This document shows positions 1 to 64,000 of a stretch of 64,000 nucleotides of DNA, piece after piece (within the stretch, counting starts at the first letter, position 1; each line of letters starts with the position of its first letter). Location of the stretch: positions 130-64,129 of the IMG/VR virus record IMGVR_UViG_3300011114_000269; one strand, given 5' to 3'. The DNA is from a virus (lineage: Duplodnaviria > Caudoviricetes). Position numbers and translations under genes: made by a program. The notes beneath the pieces were generated by a model. That model saw only the letters and a program-made list of their open reading frames with translations. It did not search any database and was not told where the DNA came from.

Positions 1-228
1 GAGGGTAAGATATATCAGGCAGCACAACACCTCTACTGCCACCTACAAACTGAAAGGCTAAACCATGACCACCATTACAGGTACACAAATAGACGACTTC
101 CAATTGCTCACCCTGCGCCAAATGCTAAAGCTTGAAATTAGGGGAATGACGCGAAGCCGTTCGCCTTCGGCCTATTCCATCTTAAAAAAGATGGGCTATA
201 CAGGCACCCGCGAATCTGTGCTGGCCCA
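1..228. repeat. Terminal direct repeat / circular overlap, left copy
   Basis: 1-228 matches 63779-64000 except for a 6-bp indel (CTACAAACTGAAAGGC vs CTACAAAGGC) and one A/G change at position 120. Confidence 0.95.
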
Positions 229-5772: not shown

Positions 5773-6612
5773 TCAACCTGTCCGGCTAACCACCGGACTA
5801 AATGCTTTCAATAGGCTTTGGGAAAACCTAAACAATCCCATCTCTTTGTGATCGTCATTGGCATCATGGCCTACTTTCTTACTCATCCAGTAAGGCCACC
5901 CAATGTTCTGAGCAGTCCGCTCCCCTGTCCCACTTGCGTCGTTATCTGCAACGACCACGCCCACATCTAAATCCCTAGCTATCTTTGCCATGTTGCCAGC
6001 ACTAAAGCATACATGGATTGTGTACCGCTTGCGCAAGCTTTTCATTGCCGCCTGTACAGACAGAGCCGTGGCAAACCCCTCACACAATACATTGGTTCCC
6101 TTGTTATCAATTACAAAGGTTGAGTGCGAAGTCTTTTGCCCGCTTAAGAATTTCTTTTTCCCGTCTTCGTCTATCAACTGACAACCAAATACTTTTCCAT
6201 CAATACGCATTGGAACTACAAGTATCGGGTTTCCATTCTTGCGCCATACATTGCCCTGCTCCTCAGGGAATCCCTTGGATGCAAGATACTTGTGCCGTTC
6301 GGTATGGCACTGGTGAAGTATCCACGCCGCCCTCGAAGCCGCTTCCCTTTGCTTCTGTTCGATATGGGTTTCACTAGCCCTAAGCACTTGCAAAAACTTA
6401 GCGCGATCTATCTTATCCGCACCCTCAGACTTCCATATGGATACTTCTGAATCAGTAGCATGGTTCTGGACAAAGGCAATGTCGCCCATATATTTAACCG
6501 CCCCGTTCTTTTTAGTCGGGTGATCCTCTGTTGGATAGCGCCGCCATACGCCAACGGGAGGCAGGGAACCTACAAGAATTCCATGTGCCTTGCAATACGT
6601 AATTAAATCCAT
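5773..6612 (-). CDS. Toprim-domain primase-like protein
   Basis: LCEGFATA and VVADND Toprim motifs; YLASKG; TAATG coupling to the helicase gene. Confidence 0.85.
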   Translation of the reverse strand: MDLITYCKAHGILVGSLPPVGVWRRYPTEDHPTKKNGAVKYMGDIAFVQNHATDSEVSIWKSEGADKIDRAKFLQVLRASETHIEQKQREAASRAAWILHQCHTERHKYLASKGFPEEQGNVWRKNGNPILVVPMRIDGKVFGCQLIDEDGKKKFLSGQKTSHSTFVIDNKGTNVLCEGFATALSVQAAMKSLRKRYTIHVCFSAGNMAKIARDLDVGVVVADNDASGTGERTAQNIGWPYWMSKKVGHDANDDHKEMGLFRFSQSLLKAFSPVVSRTG

Positions 6613-9041
6613 TACATCCTCTTATATGGTGTAGCTTTTTTGCCCTTTAGATAGGCAATCAAACGTGACTTTACAAACTTCTCAAACCCTGCATCTGGCA
6701 TTACCGCTACATCTTTAAGACTGCGAGGCCATACGCCAAACTTATCCTTATAGGTATGCGCCGCCCTGCCCGATGACCACCCGCCATAGGACACTTTATG
6801 CTGACACATCGACCAAAACTTTTGCTTATCGTCCATGCTCATGGAGCCCGCTAATTCATGCATCTCCCCAGCAACGGCAATTACTTTGTTTAGTTTCTCC
6901 TTAACAAATCCGCAGTTGTAGCAAACATCGCTATTAAAACTCCATAGTGCTTGGCACTTAGGACACTTCATTTGCTCCTTTTCTTTTTCTGTTTTTTCTT
7001 TGCGCGACTTCTCTTTTCCATCGTCCAATTCTTCTACGCCGCTTTCAAAGACTTCTTCCCATACTTCTTTGAACCGCAGGTAGTTTCCCGAATGGCAATT
7101 GTGTACTAATAATCCCTCACAAGTGAAGCAATTGTTTGATCCGGCATCGAGTATGTCCCAAACTTCCCTTTCGGTTTTATGGATGGTTGCTTGTATCTTT
7201 CTATTATTTGTTCTGTTGTCATTCCAGCCCAAAAGAAACGTTTCAATGTACTGTCTGAATACAAAATTTCTGGATGGTCTATTCTGAATTTGTGCATTCG
7301 TGCTGTTGATTGATTGCCACGTTTGTTTTGTTGATTCAACTCCACCGATAGCCATCGCAAATTGCCCGCCTCGTAATGACCATTTGGATTTATCCTGTCT
7401 AATTGCATTCGTGACCGCTCCGCTATTGAAGAAAATTTTGGCAACCCAAGATTTTGCATAATCCAAAGCGCTCCTTCTTTTACTCCAGAGAATCTGAACT
7501 CGATTCCACGACCTCCATAAGCCGGATACTGCGCATTTAACGGAGAACAGCAACGCGCCCTCATGCCTTGCACCCGGTTGTATAACCACATCGGGTAACT
7601 TATATCCGGTTGATTGCACGCCCTGCATCCCTTTGTCCTCCCACCCTCTAGGTTTGACAAAGAAATTAAATTTCGGTATCCACATTGAATACATTCGCAC
7701 AAAACGTGCATAAATCTCCTGTGTTTTGCGCCCAACCAAAAAACTTGTGGATCGTAAATCTTCACTGATCCGTATTGGAGTCCCACCAAATCCGGTCTGT
7801 GTGATTCTGATTTGTTGGACGGCACAATCCCCAAAGGTGCGCCAACCTTTAGTGGTGTGAACAAGATGTCCGGCTGTTGCTGTGAGCCCTTGGTATGTAA
7901 TAACTTCTTGGATTCCATTGCAAATTGCTCCTTTATGAGTTACAAAGTTAGTTCCGTCCCATATTTTATGGTTCAAAGTTACTTTGTCAATTGGCACAAG
8001 TCCAGCATCCGTTAAAACCCTGCTACCTTTTGCTAAACACAGCCATAGGGCAAAGTCTTTCTCAGGATAGCCGCGCATCACCCGACCCATTTGCTGTACA
8101 TGACTAGACAGGGATTTACTGAACGGCCTAGCCGATACGCCAATCATTACGTCAGGTACATCAAAACCCTTGGTAAGAATGTCAGTAGCAATTAGCCCGT
8201 GGATTTCTGTATCCGGCCTAGAAAAATCTTCAATGGCATCTTTCTTAAACTGGTCATCGTCTTTGTAGCTAATGCTGACAAAGTTGTAGCCCTGATCTGC
8301 AAACTTGCGGGCTAAGTCTGTCCCATGATCCACCCCTGCGCAGAACACAATAGTCTTGCGAGGCCGACCAAATATCTCATGGGTTTTCTTTATCCACTCA
8401 GCAACAATGTCGCCCGTGATCTTCATGCCGCGTGACGTAGCTTCCTGCTGGCTCCACTCGCCCGCCACTTTCTTTGCGCCCTCCATATCAATTTCTTTGG
8501 CTATGAATACACGCAGGGGAACAAGTATTTTGTCTGATACCAACTCTTTAGTGGTAACAGTAGACACTACGTTCTCATAGGATTTACCCATGCCCTTGGT
8601 AAATGGCGTAGCAGTAAGGCCAATCACCCTGATATTTGGATTGTTCTTGATGAACTCCATCGTTTTGCTGCGCGTGGTATGCGCTTCGTCCACAATCAGA
8701 AGGTTTAGGTCAGGGAATGAGCCGCGTTTCTCTAGCGTTTGGGCAGAACAAATCTGTATCTTTTCATAGGGCCGATAGCGCCAGTGGCCCGCCTGTAGAA
8801 CGCCGTGGTCTATGCCGTATTTCTCTAGCCGCTGACTGGTCTGGTCGCACAGAATGATTCTGTCCAAAACCATAGCCGCCTTGTTTCCCTTTTCTTTTGT
8901 GGCCTCCAGCAAAGCAATCGCCATCTCTGTCTTACCCGCACCCGTGGGAGCATAAAGAATCTGACTACGCGCCCCACTTGCAAAGCCTTGGCGTAAAGCT
9001 TCCAATGTATCTAGCTGATACTGTCTTAAATTTAAACCCAT
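6612..9041 (-). CDS. SF2 (DEAH/RadD-like) helicase with intein and C-terminal Zn finger
   Basis: APTGAGKT, IVDEAH, GLTAT, KGFDVPD, QQMGRVMR; CPKC..CYNC. Confidence 0.92.
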   Translation of the reverse strand: MGLNLRQYQLDTLEALRQGFASGARSQILYAPTGAGKTEMAIALLEATKEKGNKAAMVLDRIILCDQTSQRLEKYGIDHGVLQAGHWRYRPYEKIQICSAQTLEKRGSFPDLNLLIVDEAHTTRSKTMEFIKNNPNIRVIGLTATPFTKGMGKSYENVVSTVTTKELVSDKILVPLRVFIAKEIDMEGAKKVAGEWSQQEATSRGMKITGDIVAEWIKKTHEIFGRPRKTIVFCAGVDHGTDLARKFADQGYNFVSISYKDDDQFKKDAIEDFSRPDTEIHGLIATDILTKGFDVPDVMIGVSARPFSKSLSSHVQQMGRVMRGYPEKDFALWLCLAKGSRVLTDAGLVPIDKVTLNHKIWDGTNFVTHKGAICNGIQEVITYQGLTATAGHLVHTTKGWRTFGDCAVQQIRITQTGFGGTPIRISEDLRSTSFLVGRKTQEIYARFVRMYSMWIPKFNFFVKPRGWEDKGMQGVQSTGYKLPDVVIQPGARHEGALLFSVKCAVSGLWRSWNRVQILWSKRRSALDYAKSWVAKIFFNSGAVTNAIRQDKSKWSLRGGQFAMAIGGVESTKQTWQSINSTNAQIQNRPSRNFVFRQYIETFLLGWNDNRTNNRKIQATIHKTEREVWDILDAGSNNCFTCEGLLVHNCHSGNYLRFKEVWEEVFESGVEELDDGKEKSRKEKTEKEKEQMKCPKCQALWSFNSDVCYNCGFVKEKLNKVIAVAGEMHELAGSMSMDDKQKFWSMCQHKVSYGGWSSGRAAHTYKDKFGVWPRSLKDVAVMPDAGFEKFVKSRLIAYLKGKKATPYKRM
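7098..8039 (-). mobile_element. Intein, 314 aa (helicase residues 335-648)
   Basis: Block A CLAKGSRVLT, block B TATAGHLV, block F VWDILD, block G LLVHN with +1 Cys. Confidence 0.92.
7106..7918 (-). CDS. HNH homing endonuclease nested in the +1 frame of the intein
   Basis: CECIQCG, GRTKGCRAC, MRARC..YPAYGGRGI, LDRINPNGHYEAGNLRW..NQQNKR; AAGGAG 9 nt before the ATG. Confidence 0.88.
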   Translation of the reverse strand: MESKKLLHTKGSQQQPDILFTPLKVGAPLGIVPSNKSESHRPDLVGLQYGSVKIYDPQVFWLGAKHRRFMHVLCECIQCGYRNLISLSNLEGGRTKGCRACNQPDISYPMWLYNRVQGMRARCCSPLNAQYPAYGGRGIEFRFSGVKEGALWIMQNLGLPKFSSIAERSRMQLDRINPNGHYEAGNLRWLSVELNQQNKRGNQSTARMHKFRIDHPEILYSDSTLKRFFWAGMTTEQIIERYKQPSIKPKGKFGTYSMPDQTIASLVRDY

Positions 9042-9095
9042 GTTCTTCCTCTGTCAGCATACAGGCCCGCTGACTTGGGCGCTTATCAAAATTAA

Positions 9096-9122
9096 AAACA
9101 TTCCGAGTGGTAACGTTACCAC
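9096..9122. promoter_or_regulatory. 27-bp element containing palindrome GTGGTAACGTTACCAC, copy 1
   Basis: Identical to 22078-22104; 21 bp inverted at 62741-62761. Confidence 0.8.
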
Positions 9123-9123
9123 C

Positions 9124-9987
9124 CTAGTCGCCGCAGAAACAAGAGATTCCCTCTTCATTGGGGTCAAAAATATCACGCTGCGCCGCCGTATATTTGGCTA
9201 ACTCTGCATAGCTAGGCCGATCTTTTCTAAACTTAGAGCTGTCTTTCTGCGCCCCTTCTTTGCCTTCCGCATTCTTTTCCATTTGCGCCCACCATACGGC
9301 ACGCTCTGGATTTTCTGCTATCAAAGACGCTATCTGCTGCAATGGTTTTAAAAAACATAAGTCGCAATTGCCGTGCATGGTTACGCCGTTCATATTGGGC
9401 AACCCCAAGTCAAACGATTGCTTGCGCCAAAAGTCACCGACCTCTTCTTTGGTAACGCCAGCATCTGCCAGCGGGACTAATCTGCATACGCCGGATCTAC
9501 CATCGTCAGGGTTAGCCCTAATTTTTGCAGCACGCCTTTGCTCATCGGCCCTGATGCCAATGAAATTATCGTACTCCACCCAACCCAAGCTTCTGCAATA
9601 GCGATAGAAGGGATCAATCTTTAGCCGGACTGTGCAAATTCTCATTACTGGATTAGGTAAGAATGGTTTGCCAACCGCCTCAATCATTTCCTCAAATGGT
9701 TCGCCGTTCCTAGCAGCAGTTTCAAACGTCACTACTTTGTACCGCTGGTGCAAATCCTCATGGGTTGCGTACTCCAACCAGACCACGGGAACATTCCAAT
9801 TAACGGAGCAGTCATGTACAAACTGCAACGTTTCCGGCATTTCTTTGCCAGTGTTTGCAAATAGAACGACTGTTTCATTTGGCAGCTTGCCACCATGCGC
9901 TTGCAATACTTTCCAAAGCATATACGCAGACGTTCTGCCGCCGCTAAAAGAAATACAAGTTGGCCCTGTAATCAGGAAAGGATTCAT
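9124..9987 (-). CDS. PAPS reductase / DndC-like family protein
   Basis: SFSGGRTS, FANTGKE, GIRADE, GNCDLCFLK, terminal CFCGD. Confidence 0.85.
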   Translation of the reverse strand: MNPFLITGPTCISFSGGRTSAYMLWKVLQAHGGKLPNETVVLFANTGKEMPETLQFVHDCSVNWNVPVVWLEYATHEDLHQRYKVVTFETAARNGEPFEEMIEAVGKPFLPNPVMRICTVRLKIDPFYRYCRSLGWVEYDNFIGIRADEQRRAAKIRANPDDGRSGVCRLVPLADAGVTKEEVGDFWRKQSFDLGLPNMNGVTMHGNCDLCFLKPLQQIASLIAENPERAVWWAQMEKNAEGKEGAQKDSSKFRKDRPSYAELAKYTAAQRDIFDPNEEGISCFCGD

Positions 9988-10355
9988 TTAAATTGCTCCA
10001 ATGCCCACCGAGCAGCTTCTACTTCTTTTGGTTTTGCCATGATGTTTTCCGCTATCTCTTTCCATGCTTTAAGTTGCCGCTGATGACCGACTAGAAATGC
10101 CTGTTCCCGCTCTTCCCGTGACGCATCACCCTGATCTAGCCATGTATGACATACGACACAAGCCCATACGGAATAGGTATCGTCAGCCTTCAATGACTTC
10201 CCTTTGCCGTGAGATGCGCTATTGGAATGTGCCGCTACTGTGGTACTGCCCTCTATCCCTCGACAGAACGGAGTAACCACAAGTAGGCAGCGCTTCCCAT
10301 TAGCCATAGCCAACAAAGCAGGGTTACGTTTTGCTGGAACCTTGGCGTAGCTCAT
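9984..10355 (-). CDS. DUF1364-like putative HNH/Zn nuclease-fold protein
   Basis: TTVAAHSN..HGKG..KADD..WACVVCH. Confidence 0.7.
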   Translation of the reverse strand: MSYAKVPAKRNPALLAMANGKRCLLVVTPFCRGIEGSTTVAAHSNSASHGKGKSLKADDTYSVWACVVCHTWLDQGDASREEREQAFLVGHQRQLKAWKEIAENIMAKPKEVEAARWALEQFK

Positions 10356-10495
10356 TGAATTTCTCTGAGGTACTCTAAAGCTTCCTGTACGGGCTTCCAT
10401 ACCCTTGGCTCAAAGTCTCGACGTTCAATCCATTTTGCAATTTCATCCAAAACAAACTGATACCCGTCATCAAAGCCGTCTTTGTAATCGCTCAT
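10352..10495 (-). CDS. Small hypothetical protein MSDYKDGFDDGY... (47 aa, not in track)
   Basis: ATGA overlaps at both ends. Confidence 0.55.
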   Translation of the reverse strand: MSDYKDGFDDGYQFVLDEIAKWIERRDFEPRVWKPVQEALEYLREIQ

Positions 10496-63778: not shown

Positions 63779-64000
63779 GAGGGTAAGATATATCAGGCAG
63801 CACAACACCTCTACTGCCACCTACAAAGGCTAAACCATGACCACCATTACAGGTACACAAATAGACGACTTCCAATTGCTCACCCTGCGCCGAATGCTAA
63901 AGCTTGAAATTAGGGGAATGACGCGAAGCCGTTCGCCTTCGGCCTATTCCATCTTAAAAAAGATGGGCTATACAGGCACCCGCGAATCTGTGCTGGCCCA
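63779..64000. repeat. Terminal direct repeat / circular overlap, right copy
   Basis: Matches 1-228 with two differences. Confidence 0.95.

Follow-up and report, generated by a model that had tools for sequence, protein, structure and literature searches.

Can the linker of a single intein be read in two overlapping frames, once as part of a protein-splicing element and once as a separate gene for the enzyme that would mobilize that element? The question is raised by a helicase gene in a viral metagenome sequence (Duplodnaviria; Caudoviricetes; IMG/VR record IMGVR_UViG_3300011114_000269), of which positions 130 to 64,129 were analyzed; this whole stretch of 64,000 nucleotides (nt) is called the window below. 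The assembly is a single contig of 64,129 bases with 46.9% G+C, the size of a phage genome. A first-pass annotation of the window, made from the letters alone, had noted an intein of 314 amino acids in the helicase and, in the +1 frame of the same DNA, a complete open reading frame (ORF) of 270 amino acids that it read as an HNH endonuclease. Our analysis indicates that the locus is probably a mobile class-1-type intein in a phage superfamily 2 (SF2) helicase, and that its homing nuclease has a gene of its own, which overprints the intein linker in frame +1. The observations that carry this reading directly are the double coding and its conservation, the selection acting on each frame, the Hint fold with its catalytic residues, the conserved start codon and Shine-Dalgarno (SD) sequence, and the co-occurrence of filled and empty alleles.

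Two overlapping frames and their conservation

The helicase ORF was matched by the Pfam families ResIII (5e-20), DEAD (4.1e-11), and Helicase_C (5.4e-10) and by phrog_16 'DNA helicase' (E 1.4e-72), and its parts are listed in Table 1. The sequence QQMGRVMRG, which resembles helicase motif VI, sits immediately upstream of the junction between N-extein and intein, and the intein itself starts with CLAKGS, contains TATAGH, and terminates with LLVHN. All 813 nt of the nested ORF are contained in the intein; the ORF begins 121 nt into the insert and is read in frame +1, since 121 modulo 3 is 1. Intein and nested ORF lie where the first-pass annotation had placed them, and the marks it had read in the nested protein (YGGRGI, DRINPNGHYEAGNLRW, and the CxxC pairs) are all present. 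One detail needed correction, namely that the ORF was said to stop just before block G; its TAG codon (7106-7108) instead lies across the codons for L-V in block G (LLVHN), 8 nt short of the intein end.

Table 1. Features of the helicase locus, in window coordinates
Feature	Position	Strand	Description
SF2 helicase precursor ORF	6612-9041	minus	809 amino acids = N-extein 334 + intein 314 + C-extein 161
N-extein	8040-9041	minus	last residues ...DFALWL
Class-1-type intein	7098-8039	minus	314 amino acids, C1...H313-N314, then Cys+1
Hint N-lobe, blocks A and B	7785-8039	minus	intein residues 1-85
Frame-0 linker	7191-7766	minus	intein residues 92-283; stop-free shadow of the nested gene
Hint C-lobe, blocks F and G	7098-7178	minus	intein residues 288-314
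C-extein	6612-7097	minus	first residues CHSGNYLRF; Cys+1 at 7095-7097, Asp in the empty allele
Nested +1-frame gene	7106-7918	minus	270 amino acids; predicted His-Me (HNH-like) nuclease with N-terminal Cys4 zinc ribbon
Cys4 of the nested protein	7616-7693	minus	C76, C79, C98, C101
Beta-beta-alpha core of the nested protein	7325-7408	minus	predicted; residues 171-198, QLDRINPNGHYEAGNLRWLSVELNQQN
SD-like AAGGAG	7928-7933	minus	9 nt ahead of ATG 7918; from codons H-K-G-A
Sigma-70-like promoter candidate	7963-7990	minus	TTGACA-16-TAAAAT, 11/12; inside Hint N-lobe codons (P-I-D-K-V...K-I-W)

The double coding of frames 0 and +1 is not a product of chance. When the nested protein and its codon usage were held fixed, frame 0 was open in none of 5000 synonymous shuffles (mean 14.4 stops, minimum 6), and when the frame-0 protein was held fixed, frame +1 was likewise open in 0 of 5000 (mean 9.0 stops). 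The same shuffle test applied to 61 related copies left frame 0 open in 1 of 18,300 shuffles. In the exteins, the +1 frame contains 18 stops in 333 codons and 11 stops in 161 codons.

Relatives of the nested protein show how widely the layout is shared. A tblastn search with this protein against phage records matched 197 records; among the matches listed, the seven best (H2-H8; E 1e-35 to 1e-27, identity 33-35%) fall within genes annotated as DNA polymerase in Gardnerella and Streptococcus phages, and the remoter matches are free-standing genes, most of them named HNH endonuclease. In both GenBank phages examined, the polymerase coding sequence (CDS) reads through a homologous intein (CIAEGELVLT...LVHN/CGYGG, slashes here and below marking intein junctions), the +1 frame of which holds an unannotated ORF of 257-267 amino acids. 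A profile scan of viral contigs yielded 80 loci, which together with L001-L005 and the window make up 86 rows. Across the match, 84 of the 86 show no stop in the frame lying one base behind the nuclease, the two exceptions being one contig, and the third frame has 4-27 stops. Deduplication left 68 distinct copies from viral contigs and phage records, in helicase or PolA hosts. Of these, 62 are complete inteins of 300-316 amino acids with both junctions, and the nuclease frame is open over at least 240 amino acids in 61 of the 62, so that the disruption of the +1 ORF in homologs, which the first-pass annotation had named as evidence that would speak against it, was not encountered as a general feature. 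The exceptions are L005/L009 (the same contig, in which a 1-nt deletion near intein nt 354 fuses frame 0 to the nuclease frame, L005:1878-4294), L060 (nuclease truncated), L074 and L077/L079 (truncated or shifted), L083 (internal deletion), and L084 and L085 (contig ends).

Selection was compared between the frames in nine helicase inteins aligned on their +1 translation. The ratio of nonsynonymous to synonymous change (dN/dS, omega) was obtained by the Nei-Gojobori method for six pairs, two of which had saturated dS for frame +1 in the linker. Because overlapping genes bias so simple an estimator, we rely on the direction of the differences and on the shift in codon phase. In the Hint N zone (intein nt 2-120), amino acid identity is 0.65 in frame 0 and 0.43 in frame +1, frame-0 omega is 0.07-0.27, and frame +1 is not constrained. 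The linker zone (intein nt 217-860) has identities of 0.33 in frame 0 and 0.61 in frame +1, with omega at 2.2-3.7 and 0.05-0.11, respectively. The phase moves with it: frame-0 position 3 changes fastest in the Hint N zone (0.47, against 0.31 and 0.19 for positions 1 and 2), and frame-0 position 1, which is position 3 of the nuclease, changes fastest in the linker (0.56, with positions 2 and 3 at 0.35 and 0.24). The same pattern was seen in sixteen PolA inteins, with linker identities of 0.32 versus 0.62 and phase differences of 0.59, 0.32, and 0.26. Within the linker, the nuclease frame is under purifying selection and constraint on the host frame is relaxed, which is the outcome that the first-pass annotation had forecast for a per-frame dN/dS comparison.

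These data also bear on the suggestion that the two frames are an artefact or a decaying remnant, either an ordinary HNH intein, in frame, in which two sequencing errors offset each other, or a dead nuclease ORF whose lack of stops is fortuitous. The window does come from a viral metagenome assembly and a single contig, and one relative (L005/L009) is frameshifted. However, a contig of 1165 nt from a different study (run X5) spans 6906-8070, both junctions included, with 2 mismatches and 0 gaps, and thereby confirms the two-frame sequence independently; moreover, the layout is common to nearly all complete relatives, the shuffles almost never leave the second frame open, and the linker omega in frame +1 is low. 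This suggestion is already contradicted, and we give it next to no chance.

A splicing domain in frame 0 and a predicted nuclease in frame +1

The frame-0 product carries the residues expected of a splicing domain at its two ends. C1, T55, H58, D295, H313, and N314 are invariant in 20 of 20 frame-0 inteins; the block A nucleophile is present as C1 and the block B TxxH motif as T55/H58 (TATAGH in the window), and the +1 residue, Cys in the window, is either Cys or Ser in the relatives. An AF2 model built on a 20-sequence alignment gave residues 1-80 and 290-314 a pLDDT score (predicted local distance difference test) of 90-94, and residues 92-283, with values below 50, are predicted to be disordered. 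The folded part was matched by Foldseek, with probability 1.00, to DnaX, Ssp DnaB, gp41-1, and other mini-inteins (E 6.6e-4 to 1.7e-3). Because the Hint ends fold, the catalytic residues are invariant, and the middle is disordered, frame 0 is modeled as a complete class-1-type Hint domain with a structureless tether.

Curated libraries recover little of this domain. The 314-residue insert matched no Pfam family at E<=1 and no intein model of NCBIfam, and its only PHROG match is phrog_26005 over residues 20-68, at the N-end of the Hint domain; the lack of an intein match in curated hidden Markov models (HMMs) is a measure of library coverage and not a mechanistic feature. No endonuclease family was matched by the insert in Pfam, PHROG, or NCBIfam, in keeping with the earlier remark that the frame-0 middle has no endonuclease motif and in contrast to the in-frame family match that would have spoken against the overprinting proposal. 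Two other identities were tried and rejected. A glycosyltransferase family proposed by NCBIfam for the insert was a chance-level match far under the family cutoff, and a group I intron is argued against by the continuous frame 0 with its Hint residues, no Rfam match having been found at E<=1 on either strand of 6600-9100.

The missing Pfam and NCBIfam intein matches, at the thresholds used, are also what could be said for an insert that is never spliced and that the helicase tolerates as a loop in its own reading frame, as has been proposed for the ShiLan methylase insertion discussed below, so that the nested gene alone would matter. Against this stand the class-1 splicing residues, all of which are invariant, ends that fold as a Hint domain resembling solved mini-inteins, the low frame-0 omega of the Hint N zone, and the position of the insert in a conserved helicase motif region, where it replaces WL-D-HSGN. 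An unspliced loop is, in our judgment, very improbable.

Turning to frame +1, the HMM comparison of both frames that the first-pass annotation had suggested separated them, as the nested protein matched PHROG families annotated as HNH endonuclease (phrog_374, 1.6e-22; phrog_3377, 3.3e-15; phrog_8790, 2.1e-14; phrog_2081, 2.8e-7). An exhaustive phmmer search with the nested protein returned 13,028 representatives at E<=1e-3, of which 486 reached <=1e-10 and 42 reached <=1e-30. The model of the nested protein, based on a 77-sequence alignment, has a mean pLDDT of 88 and shows an N-terminal beta domain with four Cys, followed by a predicted beta-beta-alpha unit formed by strands 171-175 and 187-191 and helix 192-197. 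C76, R175, and N186 are invariant in the 77 sequences, and C79, C98, C101, D174, N178, Y182, G185, and the YGxRG motif are found in at least 90% of them; Y182 is located in the loop (176-186) between the two strands. N186 supplies the conserved Asn of the HNH motif, and N195 and N198, invariant in a 4-sequence alignment, offer a candidate metal ligand in the helix. Among published nuclease types, endonuclease VII was approached only by phrog_1035 (E 0.054, with no stretch passing), and no LAGLIDADG match was found in Pfam or PHROG.

Several results bear on whether the nested protein is a nuclease. No conserved His occurs among the 77 relatives of the nested protein, and the invariant R175, following D174, occupies what we take, by motif comparison, to be the position of the general-base His of HNH enzymes. 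The nested protein has no match in Pfam, HNH models included, and none in NCBIfam, and its closest structural match, the restriction enzyme PacI (PDB 3m7k), has 11% identity and a modest Z score. Foldseek found nothing in the PDB at E<=1e-3, a sequence-profile search of the PDB gave 6 matches at E 0.11-0.93, every one of them an unrelated protein, zinc-binding or other, and Pfam on the 77 relatives returned scattered zinc-ribbon matches and a single HNH_3 match (E 0.0069). The HNH label draws on this HNH_3 match as well as on the PHROG annotation. The nested protein might accordingly be conserved and expressed as a DNA-binding or accessory His-Me derivative devoid of catalysis, with the intein moving by other means or no longer homing; in the classification of His-Me fingers, groups lacking both the His and a substitute Tyr are presumed inactive (PMC5714182). 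PacI, the best structural match, is however an active HNH enzyme that lacks the canonical His and uses an omega-loop Tyr instead, and it forms group 20 of that classification (PMC5714182). Because Y182 lies in the inter-strand loop, a PacI-like mechanism via this residue is plausible by analogy, the likeness to the PacI tyrosine being one of loop position and not of residue superposition. D174, N186, and N195/N198 accompany Y182, and the element is found at four sites in two genes with filled and empty alleles co-occurring, which calls for a mobility function. We thus consider a protein without nuclease activity rather unlikely and retain the reading of the nested gene as a probable homing nuclease, while noting that PacI, unlike the nested intein protein, is a free-standing restriction enzyme and not a homing enzyme.

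The module of zinc ribbon and YGGRGI...DRID...NCRW is also reused widely outside inteins. Two free-standing proteins, P0057 (834 amino acids) and P0017 (311 amino acids), contain four and two tandem copies of it, respectively, and no Pfam model matched the module in the window protein, in P0057, or in 76 of the 77 aligned relatives.

Expression signals, empty alleles, and insertion sites

The SD-like motif that the first-pass annotation had read in the intein codons ahead of the nested ORF was recovered at the same place (Table 1), and it belongs to a conserved arrangement. In the nine helicase inteins, the start codon is always at intein nt 122 (ATG in 4, GTG in 5) and is always preceded by a purine-rich SD about 9 nt upstream; most of the PolA rows listed have ATG at nt 146 following a GAGGT-like motif, with L049 and L081 lacking a start at nt 146 and L060 being broken. 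Both start and SD are made from conserved Hint codons.

A nuclease produced by +1 ribosomal frameshifting, as a fusion of N-extein, Hint-N, and nuclease, would dispense with such internal initiation, and ORFs of this shape exist in L005 (644 amino acids), P0025, and P0045, the last two being frameshift fusions found among six proteins fetched from the top 150 phmmer relatives. Yet the 1-nt deletion that L005 shows in comparison with the window accounts for its fusion, and the point of joining differs among the three fusions. In addition, the +1 frame has stops upstream of the nested ORF and is open only from intein nt 101, the start and SD keep a fixed position in all helicase copies and most PolA copies, and no slippery site was noticed, although no systematic search was made. 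A search of longer proteins for in-frame fused forms returned only the L005 frameshift fusion, which is weak evidence. We give frameshifting little chance and favor internal initiation of the nested gene. In L005, P0025, and P0045, the N-extein and Hint-N run into the nuclease frame and stop, the C-terminal part forming a second ORF; such forms may stem from errors in the reads, or they may be pseudogenes or intermediates on the way to split inteins.

The promoter candidate listed in Table 1 may serve the nested gene and is offered as a lead only. Its -10 element ends 45 nt ahead of ATG 7918, and the Ile codon ATA is kept in K-I-W at this element. A site at the same position was found in 8 of the 9 helicase inteins (scores of 11, 11, 11, 10, 9, 9, 9, and 8 out of 12), L012 having none. 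Sigma-70-like sites in the region number 3, versus 3.9 expected by chance, and in the PolA clade the best scores at 43 of 44 copies were 7-9 out of 12 (one copy reaching 11) versus a background of 6-9, with no difference between them. The RNA-library run X20 contains contigs over the exteins and the intein-less joint and none over the intein, from which no inference on expression is drawn.

Taken together, these features suggest the following course of events. Frame 0 would be translated along with the helicase, and its two ends would form a Hint domain that splices out the entire 314-residue insert, the 190-residue middle serving merely as a stop-free, structureless tether. Ribosomes would start separately at ATG 7918 via the AAGGAG sequence, perhaps using a transcript initiated at an internal promoter (7990-7963), and yield a 270-residue zinc-ribbon and beta-beta-alpha-metal nuclease. 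This enzyme would cut intein-free helicase alleles (...WLDHSGN...), and repair would copy the intein in, together with an Asp-to-Cys change supplying the +1 nucleophile. Splicing, independent translation, DNA cleavage, and homing are all predicted here from sequence features, as is the uncoupling of nuclease dose from helicase synthesis, which such an arrangement would presumably bring about.

Intein-free alleles were found in two settings. The homologous helicase of phage MW202426 has no insert at the site and reads ...EFALWLDHSGNYLRF... (WLDHSGN). In addition, contigs of four public runs, from four other studies, were compared with positions 6612-9041 at 90% likeness, and they show joints from 7094/7095 to 8040/8041/8043, at which 945-948 nt are missing and 3-6 letters intervene. 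The coding strand of every joint form reads W-L-D-H-S, so the intein-free alleles lack exactly the 942-nt intein and have Asp in place of Cys+1. The sides of the joints extend over 81-82 letters in X11, 43 in X20, 30 in X5, and 25 in X10, and since the flanks differ by about 6-10%, the empty alleles come from related phages. The three DNA runs among them contain intein pieces too, and filled and empty alleles thus co-occur. The difference between filled and empty alleles is the intein plus the Asp-to-Cys change, and the latter fits the idea, mentioned in the ShiLan study, that inteins import a splicing-competent +1 residue by co-conversion (PMC11855218).

MW202426, the Manatee Spring phage, has its helicase at L086:1286-3844, in a CDS labeled in GenBank as 'type I site specific restriction modification protein'. 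The Walker A motif of this helicase is occupied by a different, canonical intein with an in-frame LAGLIDADG nuclease (APTGGGK/CLGRD...LAGLIDSDGS...THN/TEMA).

The 68 distinct copies fall at a small number of positions. In helicases, 5 copies including the window occupy site a (WL/C...HN/CHSGN), 4 occupy site b (WLDH/C...HN/SGN), and 1 occupies site c (KKD/C...HN/CLLLDFSG); 55 are at the PolA motif B site (AELA/C...HN/CGYGG), and 3 were not assigned to a site. A quick maximum-likelihood tree of 61 nested proteins separates the 9 helicase-borne from the 52 PolA-borne proteins by a branch with a Shimodaira-Hasegawa-like approximate likelihood-ratio test (SH-aLRT) value of 100; site a forms one group (SH-aLRT 94), and the site-c copy joins site b (SH-aLRT 80, drawn open). 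Comparison of L010-L014 with the window shows one intein lineage at three positions in a single helicase motif, all within a stretch of 7 codons: ahead of D, which is replaced by C; behind DH, where the native Ser is used; and ahead of the Cys native to DCLLLD.

A more far-reaching account can be put together from these elements, in which the Hint codons double as an expression cassette of the nested gene (-35 in P-I-D-K, -10 in K-I-W with ATA, SD in H-K-G-A, start in N-G), the nuclease is a His-less, PacI-like, Tyr-dependent His-Me enzyme, and one lineage moved among three helicase positions within 7 codons and into PolA motif B, bringing its +1 Cys by co-conversion. As a joint claim this account is tentative, and we hold it to be possible rather than probable.

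One relative is apparently not nested. The 'dUTPase' of Clostridioides phage phiCDKH02 (L087:1330-2157) was rejected as a further case, its CDS being itself an in-frame, free-standing homologue; its name is doubtful, and it lies between tail tube and portal genes.

Relation to published elements and genomic setting

The design of an overprinted intein nuclease is already in print (2025-26), and the first-pass annotation was right in recalling alternate-frame nucleases from actinophages, of which published examples were found. The actinophage inteins published in 2025 share with the present intein a Hint splicing domain in the host frame, an in-frame 'HEN region' of no recognizable structure, a whole endonuclease ORF on the same strand in a different frame, and signs of ongoing transfer; unlike the present case, their nuclease is endonuclease VII-like and lies in frame 3. 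According to the preprint, the cyanobacterial dnaX intein of Phillips, DeSimone, and Gogarten shares a disordered in-frame linker with a confidently folded nuclease in the overlapping ORF, low dN/dS in the nuclease frame with inflated values in the extein frame, upstream SD-like motifs, and intein-free and intein-bearing alleles together in populations (bioRxiv 10.64898/2026.09.14.751524). It differs in having a LAGLIDADG fold, a +2 ORF, and a cyanobacterial replication gene as host, where the present element has a predicted His-Me finger, a +1 ORF, and phage genes. The same preprint credits Gorbalenya 1998 with the idea (bioRxiv 10.64898/2026.09.14.751524).

Two further systems resemble the present one in part. 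The ShiLan domain of a mycobacteriophage DNA methylase (Arsenault, Gosselin, Gogarten, Genes 2025, PMC11855218) likewise has an out-of-frame HNH-type gene that is overprinted in a stop-free host frame and was missed by annotation. However, it has no detectable splicing domain or ribosome-binding site, and leaderless GTG initiation was proposed for it (PMC11855218), whereas the intein described here has a complete flanking Hint domain and a conserved SD with ATG or GTG. Fractured genes (Dassa et al. 2009, PMC2677866) share a separately translated homing endonuclease gene between the N and C splicing halves, but in those genes the host is divided between two ORFs and the intein works in trans (PMC2677866), whereas frame 0 is here continuous over 809 amino acids. 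Broken forms like L005 are rare exceptions among the relatives.

The present element differs from the published sets in nuclease family, frame, and host genes, and it stands outside them because its predicted nuclease is neither endonuclease VII-like nor of the LAGLIDADG type. Published descriptions, in the parts available, contain no case with a nuclease of this family, with the +1 frame, with an SF2 helicase as host, or with the PolA site, and supplementary tables could contain such cases. Overprinting a homing nuclease on an intein linker is no oddity confined to dnaX and a handful of actinophages. It is a stable, selected design, shared by at least 61 intact copies among phages whose hosts differ widely. 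The nested gene is overlooked by annotation pipelines, as happened in both GenBank phage records examined. The family is tractable, in that its start and SD are conserved, its empty target site has been identified, and filled alleles occur in nature alongside empty ones. It can serve to study how two proteins under opposite constraints share one stretch of DNA, how a nested gene is expressed inside a translated ORF, and how inteins gain nucleases and jump between sites. The putative nuclease belongs to a very large and mostly unmodeled family, without a Pfam model and with an atypical active site, which could yield new site-specific enzymes.

In the window, the helicase is part of a replication module that includes 5773-6612, 9124-9987, and 9984-10400, all on the minus strand. 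A Toprim-domain primase-like gene abuts the helicase stop (Toprim_3, E 1.3e-5, slightly below the Pfam cutoff), and a PAPS-reductase-domain gene (1.9e-7) and a YbcO-type putative nuclease (1.6e-7) lie upstream of the helicase. At the ends of the contig, the final 108 bases recur exactly near its start (window 121-228 = 63893-64000; genome 250-357 and 64022-64129), each copy being preceded by a further similar block at a 6-base offset; these repeats are imperfect terminal direct repeats or an assembly overlap.

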